Below are positions 14,691-42,363 of a DNA stretch of 64,000 nt, piece after piece; the first letter of the stretch is position 1; each line of letters opens with the position of its first letter. The stretch comes from an uncultured Spirochaetales bacterium (GTDB taxonomy: Bacteria; Spirochaetota; Spirochaetia; DAHUYW01), in assembly GCA_964506755.1 (NCBI GenBank), contig CAZDMH010000006.1, positions 31,521-95,520 of the forward strand, written 5' to 3'. The notes below the pieces were generated by a model. It saw nothing but the letters and a program-made list of their open reading frames with translations, was not told the origin of the DNA and searched no databases. Position numbers and translations under genes: made by a program.

Positions 14691-14751
14691 CCGGGTGCAT
14701 TATACCACACCTCTCCGGTCGGCGTGAGGACAGGGACGAGTAGAGGTATTT

Positions 14752-17505: not shown

Positions 17506-17509
17506 CTGC

Positions 17510-19711: not shown

Positions 19712-19989
19712 CGCAGCACCTCCTGGCTCGAGATTATTGTCTATGCGCTTCACTCCACCGTGGGGTGGATGTCGCGGTCAGTTAATCCCTGTTCGGTGCA
19801 GACATGATAAGTAGGGCCGGCTGACTCAATTGTATCCCGCCGACGGTCAGCTCGCAACCTGAAATTGCGCACGACCCAAACTCAGCTGCCGCGAGGGTGG
19901 GAAATCGAGACCGGGCAGAGCCCGTGCCGCGACAAATTTGTGGCAAAAAACCGACAATACGGGTACACTAATAGTGAAAAGGGGGGAGC

Positions 19990-21864: not shown

Positions 21865-21886
21865 GGTCGCGACAACGGCAGGGTAG

Positions 21887-26088: not shown

Positions 26089-26139
26089 GATATGATATTC
26101 TGCCTCGGGCAGCCAACGAACTGACAGGAGAAGTAACCA

Positions 26140-27060
26140 GTGGATGCATACACCCAATTCCGCGGCATGATGCCGATCATGCCCACCGCGATTACCAGCG
26201 ACGGCGAAATTGACGGGGAAAGTCAGCGGCGTTTAGTGCGCTACTGCCTCGACAACGGTGCCGTAGCGGTGGGTCACTTCGGCTTTGCCTCGGAGTTCTT
26301 CAAGCTTTCGGCCCGCGACCGAACGCAGCTCATAGAAATCATCGTGGCCGAGGTCGCAGGGCGGGTACCGGTCTTCATCGGCGTAACGGCGCCCTCGGAT
26401 CGGATGGCCGAAGGGTACGCGAAAGAGGCCGAGGCGCTTGGAGCGGACTACATCATGGCCGCGCTTCCCTACGTACGAGTACCGCGCCGAGACGAGATTC
26501 GCGAGTTCTTCCGGCGGCTTTCCGGGGCCACGAGTCTCCCGATTATCATTCAGGACACCCCCCAGAGCTCGTCATTGCTCGACGTTTCTATGCTGACTTC
26601 ACTCTCCGAGGAGTTTCCATCAATCACTCACATCAAAGCGGAGGGGACGGATTTTCTCGAAAAGAGCGCAGAGCTTACGCGGCGGGCGGGATCTCGTGTG
26701 CAGGTAATCGGAGGGGCAGGCGGCAAGCACATGATTCACCTCCTGCGAATCGGTGTCACGGCGTTCATGACGGGTACAGAGGCGCTCGATCTTCACGGCG
26801 AGGCGGTGAAGGCGTACCTCGACGGCGACGAGAAGCGAGCCGCGAAGATCTACTTCGAACGAATTCTTCCCTATTTCGTCTTCTACAACGATCATCCCGA
26901 CGAGTTGCTCAAGTCGATGCTGCACGACCGCGGGATAGTTGAGGATCCTTCAGTCATTGCCCCGATGGGCGGTCAATCGCTGGGAGAAGTGGAGCGACGG
27001 GAGTTCCATTGGGTGCTCGAACGGATTGGTTGGAATCGACCGCGGATAGGGGAGGAGTGA
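26140..27060 (+). CDS. DapA/N-acetylneuraminate-lyase-family class I aldolase (paralog 1)
   Basis: 306 aa. The TIM-barrel Schiff-base aldolase family pattern is present (…GVTAPSD…AEGYAKEAEALGADYIMAALPY…). Confidence 0.8.
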   Translation: MDAYTQFRGMMPIMPTAITSDGEIDGESQRRLVRYCLDNGAVAVGHFGFASEFFKLSARDRTQLIEIIVAEVAGRVPVFIGVTAPSDRMAEGYAKEAEALGADYIMAALPYVRVPRRDEIREFFRRLSGATSLPIIIQDTPQSSSLLDVSMLTSLSEEFPSITHIKAEGTDFLEKSAELTRRAGSRVQVIGGAGGKHMIHLLRIGVTAFMTGTEALDLHGEAVKAYLDGDEKRAAKIYFERILPYFVFYNDHPDELLKSMLHDRGIVEDPSVIAPMGGQSLGEVERREFHWVLERIGWNRPRIGEE

Positions 27061-27239
27061 GAAAGCCGAAGCGTAATCGGGGTCCGGATGAGGGCGTGAG
27101 AGCTGAGCTCAATGGTTCGATAAGGAAGCCACAGGTGGACTTTTCTGCAACTTTTGTTTGACAGAATCAGGCGGAGGGAGTACAATTCCTGGCACGAACA
27201 CCTTTCGCAACGGCGAATCGTGTTCGTATTTGGGAAAAG

Positions 27240-27989
27240 ATGGTCAGGACCGTTTTCAATGCCATCCGAATAGTGGAGATGCTCAGCGAAAAGGGCAGCC
27301 TCGGAGTCACCGGCATATGCAACGAGCTGTCGATGCCGAAGAGCAGCGCGCACAACATTTTGGAAACATTGGTTGACGAACGGATTCTCCAGAAAGATCG
27401 AGAATCGAACAGATACAGCCTCGGGGTTCGTCTGGTAGAGCTCGGAAATCGGGCGCAGTTGAGTCTCGACATTTGTCGGATCGCGCGCCCCCACCTTGCC
27501 GGGCTCAACCAGGTGACGGACGAAACGGTGCATCTCACTGTGTTGGATAACGACGAGGTACTTTACGTCGACTGCGTCGAGTCAAAAATGAGAATTCGCA
27601 CCTACTCAGTCATCGGCGCCCGGGCCCCGCTCTATTGTACGGCGGTCGGCAAGGCGATACTTGCCTTTCTTCCCAAGGATCAAAGAGATCGGATCCTCGA
27701 GGAGAAGGGACTCGCGCGCGTAACCCCGAACACGATAACGGACAGGGCTGCATTGTCTGAGGACCTCAAGAAGACGGTGCAGAGGGGCTATTCTATCGAC
27801 AACATGGAGCACGAAGAGTACCTCAGATGCATTGGAGCTCCGATCCGAAACTGGAAAGGCGAAGTACATGCATCGATAAGTGTCTCGGGGCCTTCACAGA
27901 GGCTGACCATGAAGCGTATCACGGCCATCGCCCCCGAGATAATCGGCGCTACCGCGCTGATTTCACAGAAGATGGGATATAGAGGGTGA
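27240..27989 (+). CDS. IclR-family transcriptional regulator
   Basis: N-terminal wHTH (…LGVTGICNELSMPKSSAHNILETL…) and C-terminal IclR effector domain. Confidence 0.85.
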   Translation: MVRTVFNAIRIVEMLSEKGSLGVTGICNELSMPKSSAHNILETLVDERILQKDRESNRYSLGVRLVELGNRAQLSLDICRIARPHLAGLNQVTDETVHLTVLDNDEVLYVDCVESKMRIRTYSVIGARAPLYCTAVGKAILAFLPKDQRDRILEEKGLARVTPNTITDRAALSEDLKKTVQRGYSIDNMEHEEYLRCIGAPIRNWKGEVHASISVSGPSQRLTMKRITAIAPEIIGATALISQKMGYRG

Positions 27990-28093
27990 TTTCAATGTAA
28001 TCGCAAAAAAAGGGGGAAGTTGTCGCGGAACTAGGAATCGAACAGTCGTAGGACTGTTTACAACTACATGTTTATTTCAGGAGGTTCCCTATC

Positions 28094-29248
28094 ATGAACA
28101 GCTTCCCGAAAGTCAGGGCAGTCATCGTGTTCATCGCGGTGCTGTTAGTAGTGTTTGGCACGGCATCTGTCTTTGCCAACGGAAATCAGGAGAAGGGCAA
28201 CAAGCAGAACACCACACAACAATCGAACAGCTCCACTGGCAGTTCTCAGTCGACGGCTCAAAGCTCCGGTAGCGCATCCAGCTCGTCTGCCACGAACACG
28301 AGCAGCGTCAAACCGACCTACACTTTGAAGTTCGCGACGGTTGCCGGTCCGAACGACCAACAGACGAAGACCATGAAGTTCTTCGCCAACGTCGTGAACG
28401 AGATCAGTGGGGGTAAGATCAAGGTCAACATTTTCCCGTCCGGACAGCTCGCGGACCAGAAGACCGAGATCCTTGATGTGGAAAATGGGTCGATTGACAT
28501 GGGTGAGGATGCAAGTCCTTCCTGGTTCGCCTCGATCGCCAACTACCCTCAGATCGGCGTGCTGGAAGCGCCCTATCTGTACAGCAGCCTTGACGAAATG
28601 TATCGAGTGCTGCTCGGTCCGGTGGGACAGAAGTACTGGAACACCCTCGAGCAGAAGTCAGGGATCAAAGTGCTCGGTGTCTGGTATCTCGGAACCCGCG
28701 AGCTCGATCTCACGAAGAAGGCCGGTTCAGTAACCACGCCGGCGCAGCTCAAAGGAATCAAGCTCCGGATGCCGGATTCGGCGGCTTGGCTCGACGTCGG
28801 CAGGTCACTTGGTGCGAACCCGACACCGCTCGGGTTCGGGGAAGTGTACTTGGCTCTCAAGACCGGAACGATCGACGGTCAGGACAACCCGATACCGACA
28901 GATATGACGCAGAAGTTCTTCGAGGTTACTCACTACCTCGTGCTTACGAATCACGTAATCGGATACACGACACCGATGATCAATGCGAAGCTCTGGAACT
29001 CGATGCCGCCGAAGATCCAACTCGACATCACGACTGCGCTCCATATCGCACGGGACTACAACAACTATCAAACGCTCCTCACCGAGCAGACCGCCCTCGC
29101 GAAGGCAGAGAAAGAGTACGGTATCCAGGTCGTAATTCCCAATCAGCGGGCATTCATGGATAACGCAAAGAAGTACTACAGTCAGCCGAAGTTCAACAAG
29201 GAATGGGGTGACGGTGTGTACGCGAAGCTGCAGGCGCTCGGGGAGTAG
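28094..29248 (+). CDS. dctP: TRAP transporter substrate-binding protein (DctP family)
   Basis: AGGAGG RBS. Signal peptide followed by an S/T/Q-rich linker. DctP-family blocks YTLKFATVAGPND…, …LKGIKLRMPDS…, …NHVIGYTTP…. Confidence 0.85.
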   Translation: MNSFPKVRAVIVFIAVLLVVFGTASVFANGNQEKGNKQNTTQQSNSSTGSSQSTAQSSGSASSSSATNTSSVKPTYTLKFATVAGPNDQQTKTMKFFANVVNEISGGKIKVNIFPSGQLADQKTEILDVENGSIDMGEDASPSWFASIANYPQIGVLEAPYLYSSLDEMYRVLLGPVGQKYWNTLEQKSGIKVLGVWYLGTRELDLTKKAGSVTTPAQLKGIKLRMPDSAAWLDVGRSLGANPTPLGFGEVYLALKTGTIDGQDNPIPTDMTQKFFEVTHYLVLTNHVIGYTTPMINAKLWNSMPPKIQLDITTALHIARDYNNYQTLLTEQTALAKAEKEYGIQVVIPNQRAFMDNAKKYYSQPKFNKEWGDGVYAKLQALGE

Positions 29249-29331
29249 CCCTGCCCGACAAAGTTCTCTAGAGGAGGATGCCCCCGGAGCTCACGGGGGC
29301 ATCCTGTTGTACCCTCGCTTGGATATAGCAC

Positions 29332-29841
29332 ATGAAATCCATACCGCGTCGAATATTCGATTTTTTCGAGGTATATCTCCCGTCGGTAGTCTTCTTCGTA
29401 CTCATTGCCTCCGTGTTTGCCGGTGTGCTGTTCCGGTACGTGTTTGACGACCCGATTCCGCAGTTTTTCGAGATCTCGATCTACAGCTTTATATGGGTCA
29501 TTTACTTGGGAGGCGCACTCGCCACACGGTTCAATCAACACATGCGTTTCGATCTGCTGTATCGTAAATTGCCGAAGAACGGACAGCTGCTCGTTGATGT
29601 CGTTTTCGATCTTTTGCTCAATGTGGTCATAGCGATCATCTTCTATCCCACAATCAAACAGGTCATACATATGGCTCCGCTCAAAGCGAGCACTCTCGGC
29701 ATTTCCTGGGCCTATCTGCTGATCTGCTTCCCGATCTTCCTGGTCTTGGTCTTTGCGCACAACAGCATGGCGATGTACTACAAGATCCGAGAGATGACGA
29801 CCGGCAGGAAAGCCGTGGAGGAGATACCACCGTGGCAGTGA
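29332..29841 (+). CDS. dctQ: TRAP transporter small permease (DctQ family)
   Basis: 169 aa with 4 TM helices, between the DctP and DctM genes. Confidence 0.8.
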   Translation: MKSIPRRIFDFFEVYLPSVVFFVLIASVFAGVLFRYVFDDPIPQFFEISIYSFIWVIYLGGALATRFNQHMRFDLLYRKLPKNGQLLVDVVFDLLLNVVIAIIFYPTIKQVIHMAPLKASTLGISWAYLLICFPIFLVLVFAHNSMAMYYKIREMTTGRKAVEEIPPWQ

Positions 29842-31124
29842 TAGTCTGGCTCGCCATATTCGTCACTTCCTTTGCGCTCGGCTACCCGCTGGCCCTCGGG
29901 CTCTTCCTGGGAGCCGCTGCATATCTGATTCTTTCTCACATCGACCTTTCGACGATCCTTAACGTGATGGTTATCCAATACGAGAGCAACTACGAGCTCC
30001 TCGCCGTTCCACTCTTCATCTTCACGGCGAAGGTGATGAATGCCTCAAAGCTAACCGACCGTCTCTTCAAGTTTGCAGGAAGCTTCGTTGGACCAGTGCG
30101 AGGGGGGCTCGGACACGTAAACGTTATCGCAAATATGATCTTCGCAGGAATGTCGGGTTCGGAGATCGCCGACATCTCGGGTCTTGGTCTGATGGAGGTA
30201 AAGGCGATGGAGGATGCCGGTTTCGACAAACCCTTCGCCTGTGCGCTCTCTGCAGCGGCATCGACAATCGGTCCGATCATTCCCCCGAGCATACCGATAG
30301 TAATCTATGCGGTGATTTCGGGCACGTCGATCGGTTACCTCTTCCTCGGTGGGATCGTTCCCGGCGTGATTCTTGCCGCCTGCCTCATGGTCTGGGTTGG
30401 AATCGTCTCCAAACGACGCAACTACCCGGTTGGTCGGTGGTACACGATAAGAGAGTTCTTGAAATCCCTTTTCGAATCGGCTCTCGTGATTCTGGCGCCG
30501 GTAATGCTCCTTGGAGGCATCTACGGCGGAGTCTTTACGCCAACAGAGGCAGCGGCGGTCGTCAGCGTCTACGGCCTTCTCTTGAGTCTCCTCGTATATC
30601 GATCAGTGGGTCTGAAAGCGGTCTACAAGGTCATCGTAGAATCAGTCGTCGCGACAGGGTTTACGAGCTTCATCATCGGCTGCGCGCTTCTCTTCGGATA
30701 CGCCATGGCTCGCGAGCAAATACCGGCCGCGGTTGCAACCTTTTTCGTTCATCTGGGCATAACGCAATCGAAGGTCCTCGTGCTCTTGTCACTCAACGTG
30801 CTCTTTCTCTTCCTTGGGTGCTTCATCGACGCGACGGCCTCCATGCTCATCGTCATCCCGATTATTCTTCCGTTGGTACAGGCGGCCCACATCGACCTCG
30901 TCCATTTCGGAGTCGTCGTTATTCTCAATCTCATGATCGGATTGAGCACGCCGCCGTACGGGGAAGCGCCAATAATCATTGCACGTCTCACGGACACGCC
31001 GCTTCGAGCCGTAATTGGCGAGACCTTGAAGTTCATCGTCTTCATGATCGCGGCATTGTTAATCATCAGCACGATTCCTGACACCGTGCTCTGGATACCA
31101 CACCTCGCCGGCTATCGAGGTTAG
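29832..31124 (+). CDS. dctM: TRAP transporter large permease (DctM family)
   Basis: 430 aa and ~12 TM segments. Its start overlaps the dctQ stop. Confidence 0.85.
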   Translation: MAVIVWLAIFVTSFALGYPLALGLFLGAAAYLILSHIDLSTILNVMVIQYESNYELLAVPLFIFTAKVMNASKLTDRLFKFAGSFVGPVRGGLGHVNVIANMIFAGMSGSEIADISGLGLMEVKAMEDAGFDKPFACALSAAASTIGPIIPPSIPIVIYAVISGTSIGYLFLGGIVPGVILAACLMVWVGIVSKRRNYPVGRWYTIREFLKSLFESALVILAPVMLLGGIYGGVFTPTEAAAVVSVYGLLLSLLVYRSVGLKAVYKVIVESVVATGFTSFIIGCALLFGYAMAREQIPAAVATFFVHLGITQSKVLVLLSLNVLFLFLGCFIDATASMLIVIPIILPLVQAAHIDLVHFGVVVILNLMIGLSTPPYGEAPIIIARLTDTPLRAVIGETLKFIVFMIAALLIISTIPDTVLWIPHLAGYRG

Positions 31125-31135
31125 AGGAGAACTGA

Positions 31136-32365
31136 ATGGTGAATCTTGTTGACAAGGAACAGATCTCGGATCTCTCGCACGGGCTCGAGGCCGGGGTTCG
31201 GCAGAGCGTTGCGCGACTCGTCGAGCAGGTCGTTAGTGCCAAGCAACGCGGCGGGAAGGTCGTAGTTATAACTGGAAGCGGCCCGAACATTCACGAGGGT
31301 GTGACGACCCTCATCGCAGAGCTTATTTCGAAGAGAATCGTCGACGGCGTGATTACAAGTTCCGCCGTCGTGGCGCACGAGATGGCCGGGGGCCTCGACC
31401 GAGTAAGACGTGTTCCCGGTAGGACACTCCCTGTGCCGGCCGAGCTCCTACCGCGAGGCGAAGTCTTTGAGGTTACCCTCTTGAGCGCCGAATCGCTCAG
31501 AAGTCTTCAGAAGGAGATGATTGTCGATACAGAGCTAATCGAAAACGCACTTGCGCTGGAAGGTGAGACAGTCATCAAAGCGGCCGGGAACATGGCCTAT
31601 CCGATCGGTCTTCGGACGGAACGCATTGCGATCGAGATCCAGGCGTTGGCCGAGAAGGAGGGAGCAGCGTTCGAAAAGATCGCCGGCCTGGGTGCGGACC
31701 ATCGGACGATGATCGGTGCGGCTGCACGTTCGGAGGTTCCGGTTCTCGTTTCGATACCGCAGTTGATCGGAGGGGGAATGGTCGGGCTCGCAATCGGAGA
31801 CAGCATGCCGTTGAAGCGCAGATCCGATGCCATTTCCAGAATGTTGTCGGGAGCCGACGTCATTATCGAGTCGGGCATTGCGCTCAGCCAGGAAATACAC
31901 GACGGCCCATTCGAGACCTATACGGGGCACGGAATCTGGTCGGCCTGGGATGGCGCTTCGACCTACAGCCTGAAGGGTAAGACTCTTGCTCGGATCGACC
32001 TCGATCCAACCTTGGAACGGGTCTGGAATCTCGAACGAAAGGGCAGTGACGTGCAGAGCACAATCGACAAGGGATTGCCGAAAACGAAGACATTCAAGGT
32101 TCCCTTTCGAATGGAGATGTCGGGGTTCGCTCGCCTCGAGGGGAGCATACCTATTGTTGCCGATCTCGGTGTTGTCTGGCCGATTGTTGCTGCCGAGGTG
32201 GCTGAACGGCTCAGCGTGGAGCTCGATTTTGTGTCAGCTCCCCAGGAAACTGAACACGGTCGTCGAATGCGTGATTGGATCGTGGAGAACGTGAGCATTC
32301 TCGACCGCGAGAGGATGGCGAGCGGGATCAAGCGGCATCGAGAATCGGCACCGGAAAGGAGATGA
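31136..32365 (+). CDS. conserved hypothetical protein (409 aa) co-operonic with the TRAP transporter and KdsB-like gene; Gly-rich nucleotide/sugar-binding-like N-terminus
   Basis: GAGGAG RBS, ATG at 31136. GKVVVITGSGPNIHEGVTTLIAELISKRIVDGVITSSAVVAHEMAGG near the N-terminus. No family recognised by eye. The downstream gene starts 1 nt after its stop. Confidence 0.6.
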   Translation: MVNLVDKEQISDLSHGLEAGVRQSVARLVEQVVSAKQRGGKVVVITGSGPNIHEGVTTLIAELISKRIVDGVITSSAVVAHEMAGGLDRVRRVPGRTLPVPAELLPRGEVFEVTLLSAESLRSLQKEMIVDTELIENALALEGETVIKAAGNMAYPIGLRTERIAIEIQALAEKEGAAFEKIAGLGADHRTMIGAAARSEVPVLVSIPQLIGGGMVGLAIGDSMPLKRRSDAISRMLSGADVIIESGIALSQEIHDGPFETYTGHGIWSAWDGASTYSLKGKTLARIDLDPTLERVWNLERKGSDVQSTIDKGLPKTKTFKVPFRMEMSGFARLEGSIPIVADLGVVWPIVAAEVAERLSVELDFVSAPQETEHGRRMRDWIVENVSILDRERMASGIKRHRESAPERR

Positions 32366-32366
32366 A

Positions 32367-33113
32367 ATGGTGAAAGCCGCAGTAATCATACCTGCCCGAT
32401 ATCACAGCACCCGCTTGGAGGGTAAACCACTTGCTACGATCGGTGGAAAGGCGCTGATTCAGCATGTCTACGAAAACGCAGTCCGGTCGAAGGTTGTCCA
32501 AGAGGTCATCGTTGCGACCGATGACGACCGCATCTACGACTTTGTGAAGGCATTCGGCGGGCGTGTGCGTATGACTGCAAAAGAGCATACGACCGGAACG
32601 GATCGTGTCGCAGAGGTGGCGAGGGACGTGGATGCTTCGATCATCGTAAATGTCCAAGGTGATGAGCCGTTTGTCACCGCGCCCATGATCTCAGAGGCGG
32701 TCCAGCCTCTCATCGATGAATCCGACCTGTCGATGAGCACTCTGATGCACCAGATTACGGAAGACAGGTTCGACGATCCGAACGTTGTCAAGGTCGTAGT
32801 CGACCGGCGTGGGAACGGGATGTATTTTTCTCGATCACTCATCCCCTATCCGCGCACCCGCGAGGGGCTTCGGGTTTTCGAGCATATCGGCGTCTACTGC
32901 TACCGGAAGGATTTCCTGCTGAGGTTCGTCTCGATGCCTCCGTCGCCCCTGGAGATGACAGAAAGTCTGGAGCAGCTCAGGGCCCTCGAGAACGGCTATC
33001 CAATACGGGTCGTAGCCACCGAATCAAAGGACTATGTGCCGCTCAGCATCGATACTCCCGAGGACCTTCATCGAGCCCAGGAGATCTACGGTTCAGGGAG
33101 ACAAGACAGGTAG
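32367..33113 (+). CDS. kdsB: 3-deoxy-manno-octulosonate (Kdo)-type CMP-sugar cytidylyltransferase (KdsB family)
   Basis: 248 aa. IIPARYHSTRLEGKPLATIGGKALIQHVYE and ...VNVQGDEPF... motifs are diagnostic of KdsB/KpsU rather than NeuA-type synthetases. Confidence 0.75.
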   Translation: MVKAAVIIPARYHSTRLEGKPLATIGGKALIQHVYENAVRSKVVQEVIVATDDDRIYDFVKAFGGRVRMTAKEHTTGTDRVAEVARDVDASIIVNVQGDEPFVTAPMISEAVQPLIDESDLSMSTLMHQITEDRFDDPNVVKVVVDRRGNGMYFSRSLIPYPRTREGLRVFEHIGVYCYRKDFLLRFVSMPPSPLEMTESLEQLRALENGYPIRVVATESKDYVPLSIDTPEDLHRAQEIYGSGRQDR

Positions 33114-33286
33114 AAAAGCGGGAAGGAATTCCGGTCGTTTCGGAGCCATTCGGCGGAGTCGTTAACCGTGCGTGACGCGAAATGAAGGTTGCGACATCCT
33201 ATGGACAACGAAAGGATCGAAGGGCAGAATTAGCCGATTTCGACAACGGTACCAAGCTCGAAAAAAACGCTCTCAAAGAGGTTATT

Positions 33287-34219
33287 GTGGCAACGACGAA
33301 ACAAAATATCCGGGGCATAATCCCCGCAACGATCTTCTGCTGCGACGATCGAGGTAAGCTCTCTTCGGAGTTACTCGAACGCCACCTGACTTATCTCATC
33401 GAGGCGGGAGTAGACGGAATCTTCGTCAACGGGACGACCGGCGAAGGCGCCGTTCTCTCCATCGAAGAAAAGACGGAGGTCATGCGGCAGACGGCGAGAA
33501 TAGGCGACGGCAGGGTGCCGCTCTACGGCGTCTGCCTCCAGCCCTCCACCGATGCCGTCGTAGAGGAGATCCGGGTCATGGCGGATCTCGGTGCGTCCTT
33601 TGCGTCAGCCGTGCCTCCCTACTACTATCTTCCTTCTCAGGAAGCGATCATGGTGCACTTCACGCGGATAGCGGACTCGAGTCCTATCCCTGTGATTCTC
33701 TACAACATTCCCCAAAACACGCATTCGCCGATGACGGTCGACACAGTGGTTGCGCTCTCGAAACACCCGAATATCGTCGGGATAAAGGACAGCTCCGGCA
33801 ACTTCGCAGACTTCAATCGCATGCTTCTCGCCACGGATCCGTCGGAGTTTGCATGTGTCCAGGGCGAAGATCTCCTCGATGGGGCTTCCTTTGCGATTGG
33901 TGCCTCCGGCGTCGTGACCGGACTGGGTAACATTCGAATCGAGCATTACATAGAGATGTATCGTGCTTCACAGAGGGGCGATCGCGCCACCATCTTGGGT
34001 CTGCAGAAACGCATCTACGACTTCGCCGAGATTGTCTGGCGGTTGCCCGGCAAGGCGATTCCCGCCATCAAGGCAGGGGCGGAGGTGGTCGGACGCGGGA
34101 ATCGACGAATGCGAGTCGAAGGGCTCACGCTCACGCCTCAGGAGTTCGAGAAGGTCCGGGAGGTCCTGCAAGCTGCCGGTGTGCTCGAACACCGATCCTT
34201 GGGTTCGACGGCCCCTTGA
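33287..34219 (+). CDS. DapA/N-acetylneuraminate-lyase-family class I aldolase (paralog 2)
   Basis: GTG at 33287 with an AAGAGG RBS at 33275-33280. The ORF frame opens at 33182. GIIPATIF...GVDGIFVNGTTGEGAVLS...ILYNIPQNT... is typical of DHDPS/NAL-family lyases. Confidence 0.75.
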   Translation: MATTKQNIRGIIPATIFCCDDRGKLSSELLERHLTYLIEAGVDGIFVNGTTGEGAVLSIEEKTEVMRQTARIGDGRVPLYGVCLQPSTDAVVEEIRVMADLGASFASAVPPYYYLPSQEAIMVHFTRIADSSPIPVILYNIPQNTHSPMTVDTVVALSKHPNIVGIKDSSGNFADFNRMLLATDPSEFACVQGEDLLDGASFAIGASGVVTGLGNIRIEHYIEMYRASQRGDRATILGLQKRIYDFAEIVWRLPGKAIPAIKAGAEVVGRGNRRMRVEGLTLTPQEFEKVREVLQAAGVLEHRSLGSTAP

Positions 34220-34332
34220 GTGCGACCGTCGACGGCGGCAGCCCATTCAAGAATCTAAGACAAAAAGGTCAAACGTATTCGACGTCCATAGCTCCAGGCG
34301 GGGCCGATCGCAATGATTAGGAGGAAGTCGAC

Positions 34333-35163
34333 ATGTTTGAGCTGCCTGAGTGTACCGTGCTGTCAAAGCAGATTAGTACCGAGCTGGGCGGCAAGACCGT
34401 CGCACGGGGGAGTCTGGGCAACAGCCCTCACAAATTCGTCTGGTACAACCGAACCCATGAAGAGTTCGCCCGCCTTTCCTGCGGAAAGCGGATCGGCGCC
34501 GCCCGCGTACGTGGCCGCTGGATCTTCCTCCCACTCGAGCCCGGCTACATCTTGGTCCTGGGCGAGTGCGGTGGGAGGATGCTCTTACACCAGCCAGGCT
34601 CGACTGCACCGGACAAGTACCATCTTCGGCTGGACCTTGAAGACGGCTCGCTCTTCACCGTGACCACGCAGATGTGGGGAGCCATGGAGCTCTACGAGAA
34701 GGGGAAGGAGCTCGAACGGGATTACATCAAAGGGATGCGGCCGACACCGGCCGAGCAGAGCTTCACGTTCGACTACTTCACCGACCTCATCGATTCGCTT
34801 GATGCGGGAGAGAAACGCAGCGTGAAAGGGTTGCTCACTCAGGATCAGCTCATTCCCGGGCTCGGGAACGCCGGGGCCCAGGACATCATGTTTCGCGCAC
34901 GCCTCCATCCCCGGCATCCCGTCGGTGAGCTCGAGGAATTGCAACGGCGAAAGCTGTATGACTCGATCCTCTCGACCGTTCACGACATCATAGAGAAGGG
35001 TGGTCGCTATGACGAGCTCGATCTCTACGGCAAACGTGGCGGTTACGTGCGGGTAATGGACAGCAAGGCCGTCGGACGCCCCTGCCCGGTCTGCGGGCAC
35101 GAGGTCGAAAAGATCGCCTACCTAGGCGGGTCCTGCTACCTGTGTCCGGTTTGCCAGCAATAG
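34333..35163 (+). CDS. Fpg/Nei-family DNA glycosylase-like protein with Phe at position 2
   Basis: AGGAGG RBS. The N-terminus is MFELPE (the canonical sequence is MPELPE). An H2TH motif (GLGNAGAQDIMFRARLHP) and a C-terminal CPVCG...CYLCPVC zinc finger are present. Confidence 0.75.
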   Translation: MFELPECTVLSKQISTELGGKTVARGSLGNSPHKFVWYNRTHEEFARLSCGKRIGAARVRGRWIFLPLEPGYILVLGECGGRMLLHQPGSTAPDKYHLRLDLEDGSLFTVTTQMWGAMELYEKGKELERDYIKGMRPTPAEQSFTFDYFTDLIDSLDAGEKRSVKGLLTQDQLIPGLGNAGAQDIMFRARLHPRHPVGELEELQRRKLYDSILSTVHDIIEKGGRYDELDLYGKRGGYVRVMDSKAVGRPCPVCGHEVEKIAYLGGSCYLCPVCQQ

Positions 35164-35178
35164 AAGAGGAGCCGACGG

Positions 35179-36066
35179 TTACACTGTCAGGAGTGTTATT
35201 GCGGCAATGGCTACCGGAATCCCGAGTGCTTCACTGAGCTTCAGACGCTCCTGGTAGAAGAGGTAGGAGGCAAGGACGAGCAGCAGGATGTTAAGCATCG
35301 TTCGCAGCGGGAAAACTACGGCGCCCTTCACCGACTGAAGGGCGAGCAGGAGGAAAAGAGGTATAGCAAGGCGCGTCGCGCTCATGTATAACGAGAACAA
35401 AAGCACGGTGAGCGGTCGGCGTTTTGCCGTCAGAGCATCCCGGTCCTTCCCGGCAACCTGGGGCGTATCGGAACGCTTTCGAAGTCCTCCCGCAAACAGG
35501 ATCATTCCCAGGCTCGCATAGAGGAGGACCGTTGTGGTCGGGTGGGCGCCCGGCAAGGTCTGATATATCTTTGGAAAACACTGCGTGAGCCCCGTGAAGA
35601 GGAAGGCAAGAAAGAGTCCCCCGATGGCTCTGGCGTCCGCTCCCCCATGCTTCTTCCGCCGAGGTCTCGCGAGGCCAAGCAGCAGAATTGTCGCAAAGAT
35701 CAAGGCGATTCCCGCCGCTTCTCGCCACGAAATGCTTTCACCGTAGGCGATAACGCTTAGGCCAAACGGGACGACGACGCTCAGCTGGATGAACGTCCAT
35801 GAGATATTCAGCTTCGTCTTTTCGACCACGCGAAAATAGATGATCATGGACAGCGTAAGGGTGACGCCGTAGGGAACCCCGATCAGGAGCGCAGACAGGG
35901 AGTAGATCGGCTCCCGGAACGAGACGACCGCGGCGGCAGACAACAAGAGCGACCACACGCCGCCGGCGATGAGGACTTGTCGGTAGTCGAGCTTCAGCTG
36001 GACGCGAAGCTTGTATGACATCCCGAAGAGCGCCCCTGCCACTCCGGAGAGGAAGACGAATATCAT
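35179..36066 (-). CDS. polytopic membrane protein (DMT/EamA-like transporter fold)
   Basis: 295 aa with ~10 predicted TM helices. Its start overlaps the upstream gene's stop. Confidence 0.6.
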   Translation of the reverse strand: MIFVFLSGVAGALFGMSYKLRVQLKLDYRQVLIAGGVWSLLLSAAAVVSFREPIYSLSALLIGVPYGVTLTLSMIIYFRVVEKTKLNISWTFIQLSVVVPFGLSVIAYGESISWREAAGIALIFATILLLGLARPRRKKHGGADARAIGGLFLAFLFTGLTQCFPKIYQTLPGAHPTTTVLLYASLGMILFAGGLRKRSDTPQVAGKDRDALTAKRRPLTVLLFSLYMSATRLAIPLFLLLALQSVKGAVVFPLRTMLNILLLVLASYLFYQERLKLSEALGIPVAIAAITLLTV

Positions 36067-37127
36067 CTTTCGCCTTCCTCCTTACCGAGCTTCTCGTAGA
36101 TCGATGCCACCGTCCGTACGACTCTCCGTCCGTCGATGAAGTCGGGACTGAACTTCATCCCTGGAGTTCGACAGCAACGGACGAACTCCTCGAAAAGGTG
36201 AGGTTCTGCGTAGGGGCGAAGGAGGTTCGCGGAGACTGCGGTGAACCGAGCCGCTGGTCGTTGATGCTCGGTCTTTTCCCTTCGATAAATCCAGACCTCC
36301 TCCCCGTTGGAGCGTACCGCTCCGTCGCTTCCGTCTATCTGGAGGAAATGATCACCCGGTGAGACGCGGCTGACCTCGAGGTTGAGGACGCACCCCGAAG
36401 CGAATGACACCGTACAGACGGCGGCGTCGGGGGCCGTGACGCGATCCTTGAATCCGGTCGTTGGATCGAGGCGTTCGGGATAGAAAATTATAGATACGCC
36501 GGACACATTTCGCATTTCGGCCGTCCACTCGTCGAGCAGGAAGAAGCTCAGATCGATCATGTGGGCTCCCAGGTCCGACAAGGCCCCGAATCCTCCAGTC
36601 TCGCGGCGCATCCGCCATTCAATCGGAACGAGAGGATCAGAGAGCCGCCCCACCGAAAGGTGAGCTCGGATATGAAACGGTTTGCCGAGGTTGCCGTCGT
36701 GGATCCACCGGCGTACGAAGCGATAGGAAGCGGTGAAGCGATAGGGCATTCGCACGCCATTCTGGAGTGCGCGTCCCTTGACCATTTCGACCATAGAGTC
36801 CGCGCTCTCGGGCGTGAGTGCCAGGGGCTTCTCGCAGAGCACGTGGGCTCCGGCCTCGATCGCCGCCGCGGCCGCTGCCGGGTGCTCTCCATCGGGAACG
36901 GCAATGGTTACAATGTTCGGATGGACCTCGGACAACATCCGCCGGTAGTCAGAGAAGAGCTTCGTTCCTTTCAATTGCTGGGTCTCGGCGAGCCGTCGGG
37001 CGCGCTCCACGTCTGCGTCGCACAATGCGACGATCGAGGTGTTCTTTGCGCGCAGGAGACCCTCGATGTGCTGTGAGGAGATGCGACCACAGCCGACGAC
37101 TGCGCAGGTGAGGTGATCTTCAACCAT
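36063..37127 (-). CDS. Gfo/Idh/MocA-family NAD(P)-dependent oxidoreductase
   Basis: ATG at 37125-37127 (MVEDHLTCAVVGCGRISSQHIEGL..., Rossmann GxGxxG). The ORF extends upstream to 37295 as a low-complexity R/S-rich run-in. Confidence 0.8.
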   Translation of the reverse strand: MVEDHLTCAVVGCGRISSQHIEGLLRAKNTSIVALCDADVERARRLAETQQLKGTKLFSDYRRMLSEVHPNIVTIAVPDGEHPAAAAAAIEAGAHVLCEKPLALTPESADSMVEMVKGRALQNGVRMPYRFTASYRFVRRWIHDGNLGKPFHIRAHLSVGRLSDPLVPIEWRMRRETGGFGALSDLGAHMIDLSFFLLDEWTAEMRNVSGVSIIFYPERLDPTTGFKDRVTAPDAAVCTVSFASGCVLNLEVSRVSPGDHFLQIDGSDGAVRSNGEEVWIYRREKTEHQRPAARFTAVSANLLRPYAEPHLFEEFVRCCRTPGMKFSPDFIDGRRVVRTVASIYEKLGKEEGER

Positions 37128-38004
37128 TTGGATCCATCCGTTCTTGGTCTCCGAAGTACTGCTCGAGAAGCAACTTCGCGAGGCGTACGTCGGCCCGGCG
37201 GTTGTCGCCCGACTCGCGCTCCACCGCCGCGACCGCGAGCTTTCGCCGCGTGATGAGCTCCGGAAGAATCGTAGCAAATGGAACCTCGCCGGCACCGGCC
37301 GGTACCTCCTCGGCGTGCACGGCGTCGGGGTAGCCGGGAACCGAGCTCCGTAAGTCGGAGCCTCGCTTGCGGCGCGCGTCCTTGCAGTGGAAATGCACGC
37401 TTACATCGTAGAGCGCTTCACAAGAGCTCGGGACATCGTACCCGTAGAAGAGGAAGTTGGCGGGGTCGAGGTTCACTCGAAAGCTAGGCGAGTCGAAGTG
37501 GTCTATGAGCTCTCTGAGTGTCTCTCCGTGCTCGGGTCCGGACTCGACTGCGAACACGACGTCGTCTCGCTCCATTTCTTCGATCCAAGACCCGACGCAC
37601 CGCAGGAAGCTCGCATCCTCGTGCCAGCCGGTGTCCTGCAGCGTCCCGATGTGACCGGTCACGTAGCGGCACCCGAGCCTGCGGGCGAGACGGGTCAATC
37701 CGCGCTCCTGCTCGACTCGCTCCGAGGTCTTTCCGGTCTCCAGCAGTGATCCGTAGCCTCCGGAAAGTGAGGAGAGGCTCAGGCGGTATGACCGGAGCTG
37801 AGTGAGGAGCGCTTCGCAGCGTGCCTCGTCCATTCGGTCGACGGTGAGGTCCGTGCCGACGTTGCGAAGCTGGACCCAACGGAAGCCGAGCTCATGGGCG
37901 GCCGCAAGGTTCTCGTCAGTCGTACCGGCGAAGGAGATCAGCACGACACTTATGTCGGCATCTCGACTCCCCTCCTCGATTCCGGAAGGTTTTCTGCCTG
38001 TCAT
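37120..38004 (-). CDS. sugar phosphate isomerase/epimerase (xylose isomerase-like TIM barrel)
   Basis: 294 aa. Conserved …FHCKD…, …ERESGDN… blocks of the AP-endonuclease-2 TIM-barrel family. An 8-nt overlap with the downstream oxidoreductase start suggests translational coupling. Confidence 0.75.
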   Translation of the reverse strand: MTGRKPSGIEEGSRDADISVVLISFAGTTDENLAAAHELGFRWVQLRNVGTDLTVDRMDEARCEALLTQLRSYRLSLSSLSGGYGSLLETGKTSERVEQERGLTRLARRLGCRYVTGHIGTLQDTGWHEDASFLRCVGSWIEEMERDDVVFAVESGPEHGETLRELIDHFDSPSFRVNLDPANFLFYGYDVPSSCEALYDVSVHFHCKDARRKRGSDLRSSVPGYPDAVHAEEVPAGAGEVPFATILPELITRRKLAVAAVERESGDNRRADVRLAKLLLEQYFGDQERMDPNG

Positions 38005-39137
38005 GCGAGCAGCTCATGAACCCGCGCGGTCGAGATGAAATTCAAGACGAGAGGTTGAGAACGATCTTTTTGCGATTGCTGCCAGGTCGCAAAGATGCCC
38101 TCTTCAGTCGTGAGCGTCTTTACATACCGACTCGAACCGGTTCCGTAGGGGGAGACGAACGAGGGAAAGAGCGTGGAAATCCGTCGAAGTTGCAGCTGAT
38201 CATCGTCAAGGCCGACAGCGAGGCCGCCAAGCTCCTCGCACGAATATCCTCGTGGACGTCGAACAGCCTGCTCGTGCTCCGCATAGTTGCGAACCGACTC
38301 CCCTCCGTCGTAGAAGAACAGGATGAGCGGGGGGAGATTCGCGAAATGGCCTACGCGGGGCACCGCGAGAGTGCCGGTGATGCGGCTCATCGAAACATCC
38401 CAGGTGAACCCACGCGGGAAGAAGCCGAAGTGTGGTTGTCCGAAATCATCTGCGCCCGCCTTTCGCACGGAATACGCGCTGTTCGAGCTCGACCAATTGA
38501 AGGGATGAGTGCAGTAGATGGCCACATCGTTTCCATGATCGTTGCGATAGAGCACGGGATCCTTCACGTGCATGTGTGAGGGATCCTCTGCAGCGAACAC
38601 CTCGGTGAGCCCCGAAGGCGACAGCTCCTCAGGCGTTCCCCCGCGAATCACATCGATTGTCCAGATGCCGGTGCCCGGTTTGCGGAACCGGTCGAGCCCC
38701 GGCGGATAGGGAATGCCCGCCTTCTCCGAGGAGATGTAGAACTCCAGCCCACGCGAGCCGAAATAGAGCGAGGTGCCCTCGATCGAGATTACCTCCCGGC
38801 CCGGCCGGCCGAGCTCGGCCTTGTTCATCGTGACAACCGGTTCGAAGGTGCGACCATGATCCTTGGAGCGTAGGATCGCGAGCTCGAGACCGCGTTCACC
38901 CACACCGGTTCCTGTGCGAGAATCTCCTGCATTGCGATACCGTCCGCAGAGGTAGAGAACCCCGTCGGCGTTCTCTACGAGGTTTCCTCCGCCGAACCAG
39001 TAGCCGTCCGCGCTGCGTTTGGGTGCCACTATGACGCGCGCTGCGTTCTGGTCGATCAAAGCCGCCGCAAGCTTCTCGAGTCTGTCGAGGGTAGCAATCG
39101 GCAGCGTGCTCAGTGATTTCATCTCATCTCCAATCAT
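38001..39137 (-). CDS. BNR-repeat (sialidase-like) beta-propeller glycoside hydrolase
   Basis: 378 aa with an Asp-box motif SKDHGRTF (S-x-D-x-G-x-T-W/F) and beta-propeller-like periodicity. No signal peptide is obvious. Confidence 0.6.
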   Translation of the reverse strand: MIGDEMKSLSTLPIATLDRLEKLAAALIDQNAARVIVAPKRSADGYWFGGGNLVENADGVLYLCGRYRNAGDSRTGTGVGERGLELAILRSKDHGRTFEPVVTMNKAELGRPGREVISIEGTSLYFGSRGLEFYISSEKAGIPYPPGLDRFRKPGTGIWTIDVIRGGTPEELSPSGLTEVFAAEDPSHMHVKDPVLYRNDHGNDVAIYCTHPFNWSSSNSAYSVRKAGADDFGQPHFGFFPRGFTWDVSMSRITGTLAVPRVGHFANLPPLILFFYDGGESVRNYAEHEQAVRRPRGYSCEELGGLAVGLDDDQLQLRRISTLFPSFVSPYGTGSSRYVKTLTTEEGIFATWQQSQKDRSQPLVLNFISTARVHELLA

Positions 39138-39144
39138 TGGTCGG

Positions 39145-40008
39145 CTATCCTTTCAGGGCGCCCGATGTCAGCCCCCGTACGATGTTCTTATTTGCGAATA
39201 CGAAGAATACTACAATGGGTATGATGACGATTACGACGCCGGCGAATATCACGCCCCATTCGATGGAATACTGCTGGATCTCTACGATCCTGAGCATTCC
39301 GAGCGGAATCGTGTACTTTGACTGAGAGCTCAGCAGAATCATTGCGTGATAAATCTCGTTCCAGTTGCGGAGGAAGAGGAAGATCGACACCACCATCATT
39401 CCCCCTGTCGAGATCGGCAGAATGATGCGAAAGAAGGTCTGGAAGTGGGAGGCCCCGTCAATGGCCGCGGAGTCTTCGAAGTCGCGGGGAAGGTGACGAT
39501 AGAAGGACTCCATCAAGAAGACACCGAACGGTACCCCGGCTGCCACGTAGATCAAGATGAGGCCGACGCGGGTGTCCAGCAGGCCGAGTCTTCGCAGTAT
39601 CAGAAACTTTGGAACGAGGGTAAGGATGATCGGAAGCATCATTGAAGCGGTGAGAACCCAGAACGCGGCTCTGGTAAAGGGGTTCGGAAAGCGCGCTATG
39701 ACGTACGCCGCGAGCAGCGAAAGAAAAACGCCTACGGCTACCGATGATGCGGCGACGATAATACTGTTCATATAGAAAGCGCCGATGTTCGCCTCGGTCC
39801 AAGCCCGGAGGTAGTTGTCGAAGTGGAATACCGCGGGGATTCCGAGCGGGTTCTGGTAGAGGGCCCGGTTGTCCTTGAACGATCCGAAAAGCGTCCACAC
39901 GAGCGGATAGAGCATGACCACGGTCCAAACGAGGAGGACGATCAACCCGACCGACCAGAGAAACGAGCTCACTACCCCACTACCTGAGCGCCCAGCTTCA
40001 CTACGCAT
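39145..40008 (-). CDS. carbohydrate ABC transporter permease (MalG-like)
   Basis: 287 aa, 6 TM, with the EAA loop region …IDGASHFQTFFRIILP…. Confidence 0.85.
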   Translation of the reverse strand: MRSEAGRSGSGVVSSFLWSVGLIVLLVWTVVMLYPLVWTLFGSFKDNRALYQNPLGIPAVFHFDNYLRAWTEANIGAFYMNSIIVAASSVAVGVFLSLLAAYVIARFPNPFTRAAFWVLTASMMLPIILTLVPKFLILRRLGLLDTRVGLILIYVAAGVPFGVFLMESFYRHLPRDFEDSAAIDGASHFQTFFRIILPISTGGMMVVSIFLFLRNWNEIYHAMILLSSQSKYTIPLGMLRIVEIQQYSIEWGVIFAGVVIVIIPIVVFFVFANKNIVRGLTSGALKG

Positions 40009-40975: not shown

Positions 40976-40977
40976 TG

Positions 40978-42330: not shown

Positions 42331-42363
42331 GGGAACCTCCCTTTTTTGGCCCCTGCGGGGCCT

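Follow-up and report, generated by a model that had tools for sequence, protein, structure and literature searches.

Kdo is the sugar that anchors bacterial lipopolysaccharide (LPS). Known sialic-acid systems include the SiaPQM TRAP transporter of Haemophilus influenzae, together with the lyase NanA and the CMP-synthetase SiaB/NeuA, as well as nan clusters with the sialidase NanH and the GntR-type regulator NanR. In E. coli, exogenous Kdo is salvaged via the sialic-acid transporter and KdsB (NanT, KdsB, and WaaA; labelling with Kdo-8-N3; PMC10619137), and the genome of strain BW25113 has no annotated gene for its Kdo aldolase activity (PMC10619137). For N-acetylneuraminate lyases (NALs), the cleavage or synthesis of Kdo is only a promiscuous side reaction (about 1% of the main activity), with D-arabinose accepted to form Kdo (PMC4016182). 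The Kdo hydrolase KdhAB/KdoH of Francisella, Helicobacter, and Legionella possesses a sialidase-like catalytic subunit (PMC3573668); KdhAB trims the LPS precursor of its own cell and requires a small membrane partner.

We analysed a window of 64,000 nt (the whole stretch of DNA under study) from a contig of an uncultured Spirochaetales bacterium and, with moderate confidence, read positions 27158–34219 as a single operon under IclR control that would serve to scavenge a free 3-deoxy-ulosonic acid of the Kdo type. Similar to sialic-acid scavenging, it combines a TRAP transporter displaying the SiaP triad, a lyase of the DHDPS/NAL family, and a CTP-dependent cytidylyltransferase of the PF02348 fold family, joined in related loci by a secreted hydrolase of the sialidase family, and it would share a sugar-acid-type repressor and the choice between salvage and catabolism. 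In contrast to those systems, the cytidylyltransferase is of the KdsB type (for the 8-carbon Kdo) instead of the NeuA type and sits within the transporter operon, the lyase differs from both NanA and DapA in score or motif, NanK, NanE, and NagAB are absent, and nothing in nan or sia clusters corresponds to the 409-aa protein that we name DSL. While Kdo salvage in E. coli likewise joins import of the sialic-acid type to activation by KdsB, it is a side activity of scattered housekeeping genes, whereas here a dedicated regulated operon holds its own putative KdsB paralogue, DSL, and a lyase. The secreted BNR_2 proteins of related loci are sialidase-like, as is the catalytic subunit of KdhAB/KdoH, but they stand alone and in loci of a nutrient-acquisition type.

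Organization of the operon and its gene products

Checking of open reading frames confirmed the genes of an earlier sequence-only reading at their positions, forming a co-directional series (27240–34219, plus strand), and family assignment by Pfam and NCBIfam profile searches agreed with its proposed order of an IclR regulator, TRAP DctPQM, an unknown 409-aa protein, KdsB, and a NAL-family enzyme. The close spacing of the genes fits a single operon, with DctQ and DctM overlapping by 10 nt and gaps of 11 nt between DctM and DSL and 1 nt between DSL and KdsB. Upstream, the best promoter site of the region is sigma-70-like (27158–27186, plus strand; TTGACA, 17 nt spacer, TACAAT; 11 of 12 matches), and five related loci have -35 and -10 elements ahead of iclR that line up with those of this site. 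Just 3' of the -10 element, two imperfect CGAACnnnGTTCG-type boxes make up a candidate IclR operator (27194–27227), a 15+15 nt inverted repeat whose arms (27194–27208 and 27213–27227) are 87% complementary. L004, L005, L013, L016, and L022 keep its consensus CGAACAnCGTTCGTAATTACGAACAnCGTTC at the corresponding place ahead of iclR, and IclR may bind at this palindrome. The first gene encodes a KdgR/BhcR-like regulator of the IclR family (27240–27989; HTH_IclR and IclR_C, E 2.8e-52) that scored below the NCBIfam equivalog cut-offs of both BhcR and KdgR; in related loci, the IclR gene also lies upstream of the TRAP genes.

All three subunits of the predicted TRAP transporter (28094–31124) were confirmed by Pfam and NCBIfam, namely the solute-binding protein DctP (28094–29248; PF03480, E 3e-66), the small membrane subunit DctQ (29332–29841; PF04290, E 2e-22), and the large membrane subunit DctM (29832–31124; PF06808, E 9e-93; TIGR00786, 374 bits against a cut-off of 268). 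DctP has a signal peptide and then a Ser/Gln/Thr-rich linker of about 50 aa and was placed in the SiaP/4PF6 branch, with 4pf6 as top PDB match (2.5e-50) and SiaP proteins next. This closest solved homologue, the TRAP binding protein RD1_1052 of Roseobacter denitrificans, was presumably solved with bound Kdo. It has LRMP and DGQDNP in common with DctP, as well as a Trp following the second Arg that is missing from SiaP, though at 34% identity the two are not orthologues (33% to SiaP). A motif check proposed earlier revealed equivalents of SiaP Arg127, Arg147, and Asn187 (GTRE, KLRMP, and DGQDNP), so that the Arg/Arg/Asn carboxylate triad is kept.

The gene for the CMP-3-deoxy-manno-octulosonate synthetase (32367–33113) starts 1 nt past the DSL stop codon, and its product is of the true KdsB type as previously supposed, passing the curated cut-offs of four KdsB models (e.g., NF003952, 308 against 193 bits; TIGR00466, 216 against 155) and containing the motif IIPARYHSTRLEGKPL on which that assignment had been based. 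Further conserved motifs are PARY.S.RL.GKP, QGDEP, the His of (K/E)H(V/I)G(I/V)Y, ESLEQLR, and DTP. The top PDB match was KpsU (1gq9, 3e-60), and identities to E. coli KdsB, E. coli KpsU, and V. cholerae KdsB amounted to 45–46%. A kdsA/kdsC/waaA context, named earlier as an argument against the proposal, does not surround the gene, and a search with reference WaaA resulted in no homologue in the window.

The last gene (33182–34219) encodes a class I pyruvate aldolase-like enzyme and candidate ulosonate lyase, whose placement in the DapA/NAL family holds (PF00701, E 6e-54). It retained GTTGE, the Schiff-base Lys (GIKDSSG), and YY, while YNVPGRT of DapA is replaced by YNIPQNT (Arg138 to Asn). 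Since Arg138 is lost and the dapA score stays under the cut-off (167 against 206 bits), a lysine-type DHDPS, which had been named as a possible outcome, is ruled out, as is NanA (97 against 382 bits). The statement that Kdo aldolases are known from the NAL family was overstated in view of the promiscuous activity of about 1% (PMC4016182). In the extended loci L008 and L015, homologues of the operon lyase (42–45% identity) occupy the distal end. To the cluster 2 type, the commonest lyase linked to KdsB-DSL, it is 28% identical, and the window harbours no homologue of that type. In L004 and L005, the closest relatives of the operon, no lyase follows KdsB.

DSL (31136–32365, 409 aa) is an uncharacterised cytoplasmic protein, and the sequence-only reading, which listed it as unknown, missed its importance: no other partner of KdsB is as conserved, and no other element of the locus holds as much interest. 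It is strongly conserved (more than 3900 homologues at 60–80% identity), matched no Pfam family, and displays a Rossmann fold similar to deoxyhypusine synthase (DHS) and ArgZ-C, its relatives belonging to the superfamily of DHS and the C-terminal ornithine-cyclodeaminase domain of ArgZ/AgrE (LOR/SDH, TIGR00300). The motifs G.GP.IH.G and A..AH(D/E) are common to DSL and ArgZ. These fold relatives (DHS, AgrE ornithine cyclodeaminase domain) are NAD-dependent redox-neutral enzymes, and DSL itself is probably an enzyme that binds a nicotinamide-type cofactor; every statement on its action is our inference.

Linkage of KdsB and DSL across genomes

A scan of 185,579 species genomes for DSL resulted in at least 588 confirmed matches of sporadic distribution, and none was found in 72,556 plasmid records. 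Of 66 evaluable loci, 54 have KdsB and DSL adjacent and co-directional, with either gene first, and the two lie side by side in genomes of more than a dozen phyla, among them Spirochaetota, Acidobacteriota, Planctomycetota, Bacteroidota, Hydrogenedentota, KSB1, Calditrichota, Aerophobota, Verrucomicrobiota, and Chloroflexota. Their pairwise identities co-vary (r = 0.85; 0 of 999 Mantel permutations as high). Locus L045 carries two KdsB genes, of which only the DSL-adjacent copy falls in the tight DSL-linked group, the other being divergent, which argues for a dedicated KdsB paralogue. Recurring neighbours are secreted BNR_2 sialidase-like proteins with two to five Asp-boxes (in about 30 related loci), SSF, MFS, and TRAP transporters, DHDPS-family lyases, GH92, GH38, and GH78 glycosidases, and IclR, GntR, or LacI regulators; among 37 well-flanked loci (at least 5 kb on either side), 29 harboured a transporter, BNR protein, or DHDPS lyase within 8 kb. 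These neighbours in many phyla strengthen the earlier proposal of uptake, CMP activation, and cleavage of an exogenous 3-deoxy-ulosonic acid and support KdsB-DSL as the conserved core of a system that scavenges Kdo, or a near analogue of it, in the manner known for sialic acid. A literature search revealed no paper describing such a KdsB-DSL system.

In the operon, the TRAP transporter would import the acid, its carboxylate clamped by the Arg/Arg/Asn triad of a DctP from the sialic-acid/Kdo-binding branch. In the cytoplasm, the dedicated KdsB paralogue, partnered by DSL, would turn the sugar into its CMP derivative, with DSL isomerising or otherwise remodelling it directly before or after activation; alternatively, the DHDPS/NAL-family lyase would split the acid into pyruvate and a pentose. 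In other phyla, the same core seems to be wired to secreted sialidase-like hydrolases, with SSF or MFS transporters replacing TRAP. Kdo is the putative substrate mainly by KdsB homology, and the direction of flux, salvage or catabolism, is likewise putative.

Alternative readings

The Kdo-scavenging reading is based on the family and motif assignments, the promoter and conserved operator, the adjacency, co-variation, and recurring neighbours of KdsB-DSL, the second KdsB of L045, the lack of WaaA homologues near the pair outside L001, the occurrence in Chloroflexota, and the cited work on Kdo salvage, KdhAB, and NALs. It is weakened by the identity of DctP to 4pf6 and SiaP of only 34% and 33%, by the window containing neither a sialidase-like hydrolase nor a cluster 2 lyase, by the lyase-free L004 and L005, and by the 8 well-flanked loci that have the pair in unrelated surroundings. 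A fairly unlikely alternative is an obligatory CMP-dependent, Leloir-like catabolism with no salvage branch, in which KdsB and DSL would perform the first steps, CMP serving as nucleotide handle or leaving group, and DSL with its bound nicotinamide cofactor would act on the CMP-sugar by epimerisation or by oxidation and elimination, its product passing via a DHDPS-family lyase, PfkB kinase, and SIS isomerase into central metabolism. The pair is indeed better conserved in these loci than any lyase (KdsB in 32, DHDPS in 16 of the 37 well-flanked loci), minimal modules of regulator, BNR hydrolase, transporter, KdsB, and DSL are lyase-free (L067, L070, L079), and extended loci also hold PfkB, double-SIS, Zn-ADH, SDR, and Amidohydro_2 genes. 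The redox-neutral fold of DSL, its motifs common with ArgZ, and the presence of the pair on contigs of Chloroflexota MAGs (L061, L080), a phylum without LPS, point the same way. However, activation costs CTP, and, to our knowledge, CMP-sugars have no precedent as catabolic intermediates. Five loci (L020, L025, L032, L069, L073) display DSL beside a BNR protein with no KdsB within 10 kb, which suggests that a dedicated KdsB is no strict requirement for DSL. Moreover, class I aldolases of the DHDPS/NAL family can cleave free Kdo directly, so that CMP activation is chemically unneeded (PMC4016182).

Scavenging of the same type might also concern another ulosonic acid, either modified or isomeric Kdo (Ko, 5-O-methyl-Kdo, an anhydro-Kdo, Kdo8N) or a 7- or 9-carbon analogue, which we regard as unlikely. 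DSL would then make the KdsB substrate from the imported form, analogous to NanOx/YjhC, the oxidoreductase converting 2,7-anhydro-Neu5Ac to Neu5Ac. This would explain why DSL is sometimes paired with BNR alone, expected if it handles the hydrolase product, and agrees with the redox-neutral conversions performed by its relatives with bound cofactor, with a DctP equidistant from the 4pf6 and SiaP types, leaving the ligand unfixed, and with hints at decorated substrates from URO-D-like genes in four loci (weak Pfam URO-D match only, no NCBIfam match) and GH78/GH92/GH38 in several; but the sugar-contacting motifs of KdsB are the same as in Kdo-specific enzymes, and no direct evidence was found for any particular derivative. 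Distinctly unlikely is a chance proximity of housekeeping envelope genes to a sugar-acid catabolic system, with KdsB as the normal CMP-Kdo synthetase for LPS or capsule, DSL as an unrecognised, e.g., Kdo-modifying, envelope enzyme, and the TRAP transporter and aldolase serving an unrelated acid such as a 2-keto-3-deoxy-aldonate. KdsB indeed has all canonical motifs and scores above the KdsB cut-offs, waaA adjoins DSL-KdsB in L001, and DSL-linked KdsBs are just slightly closer to each other (median 54% identity) than to proteobacterial ones (45–47%). The surroundings of the pair are unrelated in 8 of the 37 well-flanked loci, where it stands by itself, e.g., beside an ECF sigma factor or rubrerythrin, so that KdsB may be the housekeeping copy in some genomes. 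However, about 15 loci besides the window have the pair lodged within an IclR-controlled transporter operon, only a few bases from its neighbours, which makes an essential LPS gene unlikely, and no WaaA homologue appeared in the 79 genome-scan loci other than L001. The sporadic distribution of DSL, its absence from the plasmid records, the recurring secreted sialidase-like hydrolases and glycosidases, and the second, divergent KdsB of L045 also speak against it.

Neighbouring operons

No sialidase-like hydrolase was found in the window. The BNR sialidase-like enzyme proposed 4 kb downstream (38001–39137, 378 aa) had no match in Pfam, NCBIfam, or PDB sequence searches, its structure model suggests a five-bladed GH43/GH130-like propeller, and its one Asp-box-like motif (SKDHGRTF) likewise arises in 2% of shuffles. 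It lies on the opposite strand in a separate operon with a ROK regulator, an ABC sugar transporter, a TIM-barrel protein, and a Gfo/Idh/MocA protein, and on this model and location we rejected it as a sialidase-fold protein. The second NAL-family paralogue (26140–27060) was upheld as a DHDPS-family protein by Pfam/NCBIfam, but not as a member of the scavenging locus. Since it lies directly 3' of an Opp-type ABC transporter (SBP_bac_5 by profile match, permease and ATPase by reading of the translations) and the iclR promoter intervenes between it and iclR, it is probably the last gene of this upstream ABC operon.

Organization, regulation and transporter of the operon

Listing of open reading frames combined with family scans revealed seven genes in a co-directional row, encoding an IclR regulator (27240-27989), the TRAP subunits DctP (28094-29248, PF03480), DctQ (29332-29841, PF04290), and DctM (29832-31124, PF06808), a 409-aa deoxyhypusine-synthase-like protein without family assignment, hereafter DSL (31136-32365), KdsB (32367-33113), and a protein of the DHDPS/NAL family (33182-34219, PF00701). 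The dctQ and dctM genes overlap by 10 nt, and gaps of 11 nt and 1 nt separate DctM from DSL and DSL from KdsB, respectively. Since the spacing of the seven genes is compatible with it, a single transcript seems plausible. A near-consensus sigma-70-type promoter (27158-27186, 11 of 12 matches) is followed by an inverted repeat of 15+15 nt (27194-27227). Five related loci, belonging to Spirochaetota and Aerophobota, show the same order of -35 box, -10 box, and two CGAACnnnGTTCG-like boxes ahead of iclR. A search for the exact palindrome in related loci gave no match because the operator boxes are degenerate; the aligned upstream regions do share the motif. We read the operon as autoregulated and repressor-controlled, and we infer that IclR binds to the candidate operator boxes within the inverted repeat.

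The three consecutive transporter genes encode a complete tripartite DctP-type TRAP system, for which TIGR00787 and TIGR00786 also scored above their cut-offs. In the sialic-acid binder SiaP, an Arg/Arg/Asn triad clamps the carboxylate of the substrate, with Arg147 forming the salt bridge. The equivalent of Arg147 is kept in DctP (KLRMP aligned with KLRVP of SiaP), as are those of Arg127 (GTR) and Asn187 (DGQDNP). In addition, DctP falls in a branch of its family together with SiaP and PDB 4pf6, the latter presumably a structure with bound Kdo. The identity to SiaP and 4pf6 is only 33-34%, so that the ligand is not fixed by homology. Apart from that, DctP carries a low-complexity linker of about 50 residues rich in Ser, Gln, Thr, and Asn (residues ~28-75), which connects the signal peptide to the folded domain, lacks a lipobox cysteine, and is unusual among DctP proteins.

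KdsB, DSL and the DHDPS-family enzymes

By all sequence tests applied, the cytidylyltransferase of the operon is of the genuine KdsB type, and activity on Kdo and CTP is predicted. It exceeded the cut-offs of NF003952 (308 vs. 193 bits), NF009905 (286 vs. 255), NF003950 (264 vs. 234), and TIGR00466 (216 vs. 155), and the only other ulosonic-acid cytidylyltransferase model to match was that of the pseudaminic-acid enzyme PseF with 45 bits. Its closest solved relative is KpsU, the capsule isozyme of E. coli (1gq9, E 3e-60). Alignments with KpsU (1gq9) and the KdsB proteins of V. cholerae and E. coli revealed that PARY.S.RL.GKP, QGDEP, the His of (K/E)H(V/I)G(I/V)Y, ESLEQLR, and DTP are all kept; according to the structural literature, these are the catalytic, nucleotide-, metal-, and sugar-binding motifs, the first of them P-loop-like. 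With identities of 45-46% to E. coli KdsB, E. coli KpsU, and V. cholerae KdsB, the protein is about as distant from the two E. coli isozymes as these are from each other (44% identity, PMC3149649).

DSL belongs to an isolated and very tightly conserved family without a Pfam model or a characterized member, and it has the fold of redox-neutral enzymes that hold a nicotinamide cofactor, so that cofactor use is predicted. More than 3900 homologs share 60-80% identity with it, all but two of them annotated as hypothetical, and an alignment of 30 homologs revealed 116 invariant positions, including TGSGPN.HEG and PFRMEMSGFARL. Searches of Pfam and NCBIfam for a known family of which DSL might be a diverged member resulted in sub-threshold matches only, namely to deoxyhypusine synthase (PF01916, below the gathering threshold over the whole domain), the C-terminal domain of ArgZ, and TIGR00300. 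Likewise, a profile search against PDB sequences gave a single marginal match, again ArgZ, with the common motifs G.GP.IH.G and A..AH(D/E). When 1.84 billion representative proteins were searched exhaustively with a profile, 207 matches resulted, forming about two full-length clusters at 50% identity, with no distant relatives or fusion proteins among them. Residues 303-332 combine a near-invariant sequence with low model confidence, which would suit a mobile active-site loop.

The DHDPS/NAL-family protein of the operon matched PF00701 with an E value of 6e-54 and kept the Schiff-base lysine (GIKDSSG) as well as GTTGE and PPYY. An assignment as DapA was rejected at 167 bits against a cut-off of 206; YNVPGRT of DapA reads YNIPQNT here, with Asn replacing Arg138, the residue that binds aspartate semialdehyde. 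NanA was rejected as well (TIGR00683, 97 vs. 382; NF003164, 120 vs. 281). Judged by its sequence, the protein is a putative class I pyruvate-aldolase-type enzyme without assigned specificity. It shares 28% identity with the lyase type most often linked to KdsB and DSL (cluster 2) and thus represents another subtype; the extended loci L008 and L015, both from Spirochaetota, harbor homologs with 42-45% identity at their far ends.

A further aldolase gene at 26140-27060 had been counted as part of the same locus in the sequence-only reading. It lies upstream of the operon promoter and directly behind an Opp-type ABC transporter, to whose operon it most likely belongs. In that operon (19990-27060, plus strand), of which this divergent DHDPS-family gene is the last, the binding protein was identified through Pfam as SBP_bac_5, and two permeases and two ATPases were read from the translations. 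The gene product revealed a KdgD-like GFASEFFKL where GTTGE is expected, and reached only 40 and 54 bits with the NanA models TIGR00683 and NF003164 (cut-offs 382 and 281). In the Ignavibacteria locus L036, a homolog (54% identity) is placed between an SSF transporter and KdsB-DSL, so that a functional link of this gene to the pair is conceivable.

Genomic context and putative function of the KdsB-DSL pair

Scanning one genome per species confirmed at least 588 DSL-encoding loci, of which the best 80 were analyzed by clustering neighboring ORFs and family scans of the cluster representatives. These 80 loci, all from metagenome-assembled genomes, covered Spirochaetota, Acidobacteriota, Planctomycetota, Bacteroidota (with Ignavibacteria/Chlorobiota), Hydrogenedentota, KSB1, Calditrichota, Aerophobota, Verrucomicrobiota, Chloroflexota, Thermodesulfobacteriota, Nitrospirota, Zixibacteria, and others. 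Among those extending 1 kb or more to either side of DSL, kdsB was found at most 400 bp from the DSL gene and on the same strand in 54 of 66, the order being KdsB-DSL in 38 and DSL-KdsB in 16 of them. Pairwise identities of DSL and the neighboring KdsB co-varied (r = 0.85; none of 999 Mantel permutations as high), and the two genes have a shared history. Recurrent neighbors among the best 80 loci were DHDPS-family lyases (28 loci), secreted BNR_2 sialidase-like proteins with 2-5 Asp-boxes (25 + 7 loci), Na+/solute symporters (18 loci), and TRAP systems orthologous to that of the window (13-15 loci, 58-83% identity by tblastn), together with MFS transporters, IclR, GntR, and LacI regulators, GH92 and GH38 mannosidases, and GH78 rhamnosidases. 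Extended loci additionally harbored a PfkB kinase, a double-SIS protein, a Zn-dependent dehydrogenase, an SDR, and an Amidohydro_2 protein. In the 37 of the best 80 loci whose flanks measured 5 kb or more in both directions, KdsB was located within 8 kb in 32, a transporter in 19, a BNR protein in 16, and a DHDPS-family protein in 16; transporter, hydrolase, and lyase occurred together in four, and eight had neither transporter, BNR, nor DHDPS within 8 kb. Four loci from three phyla (L010, L016, L033, and L034) also revealed a gene for a protein of about 400 aa upstream of the transporter or lyase, with a weak Pfam URO-D match and no NCBIfam match. In Candidatus Vecturithrix granuli (L001:6323-10050), a divergent gene for a WaaA-type Kdo transferase adjoins DSL-KdsB, and the series continues with TRAP genes, DHDPS, Fe-ADH, an SIS protein, and Zn-ADH.

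The KdsB of the pair might simply be the housekeeping enzyme, as would suit the eight well-flanked loci in which the pair stands in unrelated surroundings, but several observations argue against this. The kdsB gene of the window is placed inside a repressor-controlled transporter operon, and an LPS-gene context was rejected, since WaaA adjoins the pair at a single locus (L001) and at no other among the best 80. DSL is sporadic among species, judged by the at least 588 confirmed loci, and no homolog was found in 72,556 plasmid records. The KSB1 locus L045 (5879-9481) harbors two KdsB genes in tandem upstream of DSL, of which the DSL-adjacent one is 64-68% identical to other DSL-linked KdsB proteins, whereas the second copy reaches at most 53%. 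Finally, the pair was detected on contigs binned as Chloroflexota (L061 and L080; binning errors are possible), a phylum that is generally held to lack LPS.

Nearly all lipopolysaccharides contain Kdo, as do plant rhamnogalacturonan-II and some algal scales, which makes it a steady component of necromass and plant debris. To our knowledge, its recovery or degradation by bacteria is essentially undescribed; the known salvage is a side activity of sialic-acid genes, and first reports of Kdo aldolase activity are decades old. No publication on this locus or on DSL was found in the literature on Kdo uptake, catabolism, salvage, aldolase, and hydrolase or on deoxyhypusine-synthase-like proteins together with Kdo. 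The sequence-only reading had proposed a scavenging locus for Kdo or a sialic-acid-like sugar, with NAL-family aldolases and a BNR sialidase-like hydrolase; the observation is largely real, and the interpretation holds in part. As in sialic-acid scavenging systems, a secreted hydrolase of the sialidase family, a high-affinity acid transporter, an NAL-family lyase, a CMP-synthetase, and a sugar-acid repressor recur around DSL, but these loci are built around a Kdo-type cytidylyltransferase. The window has the transporter, a lyase-family enzyme, and the CMP-synthetase; its lyase subtype differs from the commonly linked one, and no sialidase-family hydrolase was found within the 64 kb. We would describe the locus as a sialic-acid-type scavenging system in a new version, specific for a Kdo-type sugar and equipped with DSL, a widespread and uncharacterized enzyme family, and we favor regulated uptake and processing of Kdo or a close analog as the role of the operon. 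The glycosidases associated with the pair would be compatible with glycans that bear Kdo, e.g., LPS inner cores or the Rha-Kdo side chain of rhamnogalacturonan-II. Published work makes every component plausible for Kdo: catalytic subunits of Kdo hydrolases are sialidase-like (PMC3573668), exogenous Kdo can be salvaged in E. coli via a sialic-acid transporter and KdsB (PMC10619137), and NAL enzymes slowly interconvert Kdo and D-arabinose plus pyruvate (PMC4016182). A Kdo aldolase activity has been described, but the E. coli BW25113 genome lacks an annotated gene for it (PMC10619137).

That KdsB and DSL are paired so constantly, and that their genes are translationally coupled in the window, suggests that they act in consecutive steps. 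For DSL we favor a cofactor-dependent isomerization or remodeling of the sugar. By analogy to the Leloir pathway, where a nucleotide handle is used for an NAD-dependent epimerase, it might act on the CMP-sugar; alternatively, it might act on the imported form and make a substrate usable by KdsB. KdsB takes only the minor beta-pyranose anomer, and CMP-Kdo decays (half-life 34 min; PMC3149649). Five loci in which DSL lies beside a BNR protein without KdsB (L020, L025, L032, L069, and L073) would rather suit a DSL that acts on free sugar. CMP activation may nevertheless form part of a catabolic route, since KdsB-DSL is more conserved than any lyase. Tentatively, and with rather more doubt than conviction, we propose that KdsB and DSL constitute a previously unrecognized two-enzyme module in more than 12 bacterial phyla with which environmental bacteria process the Kdo they scavenge; DSL would represent a novel enzyme family with a new reaction on Kdo or CMP-Kdo, e.g., a cofactor-dependent epimerization or elimination on the CMP-sugar, the CMP-sugar would be a catabolic or recycling intermediate, and the DHDPS-family proteins would represent the long-missing natural Kdo aldolase genes. 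If the locus is what it appears to be, it offers candidate genes for Kdo uptake, activation, and cleavage, as well as a regulator and operator as a candidate Kdo-responsive switch, and DSL might perform new chemistry, with either a CMP-sugar or a 3-deoxy-ulosonic acid as its substrate. This would bear on metabolic labeling of LPS with Kdo analogs and on the cycling of carbon where the carriers live, namely in sediments, soils, and digesters.

Neighboring genes in the window

The 378-aa protein encoded at 38001-39137, previously read as the BNR sialidase of the locus, did not withstand closer analysis: a BNR/sialidase family match, repeated Asp-boxes, and a six-bladed propeller of the GH33 type were all lacking. 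It models as a five-bladed propeller and is encoded in a separate operon on the minus strand (35179-43539), and its family of more than 1800 members has no Pfam model, some members being auto-named 'exo-alpha-sialidase' contrary to their fold. The same operon encodes a ROK regulator, an ABC sugar transporter (binding protein and two permeases), a xylose-isomerase-like TIM barrel, a Gfo/Idh/MocA oxidoreductase, and an EamA permease. Beside the Kdo-type operon, a gene at 34333-35163 (plus strand), not conserved at this position in related loci, encodes an Fpg/Nei-like protein (109 bits vs. a cut-off of 212) whose N-terminus reads MFELPE instead of the canonical MPELPE and thus lacks the catalytic N-terminal proline. 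Three very large consecutive genes at 11475-19753 (minus strand), encoding WD40/TPR, LVIVD-repeat, and TPR proteins of 1071, 970, and 747 aa, appear to be unrelated to the Kdo-type operon.
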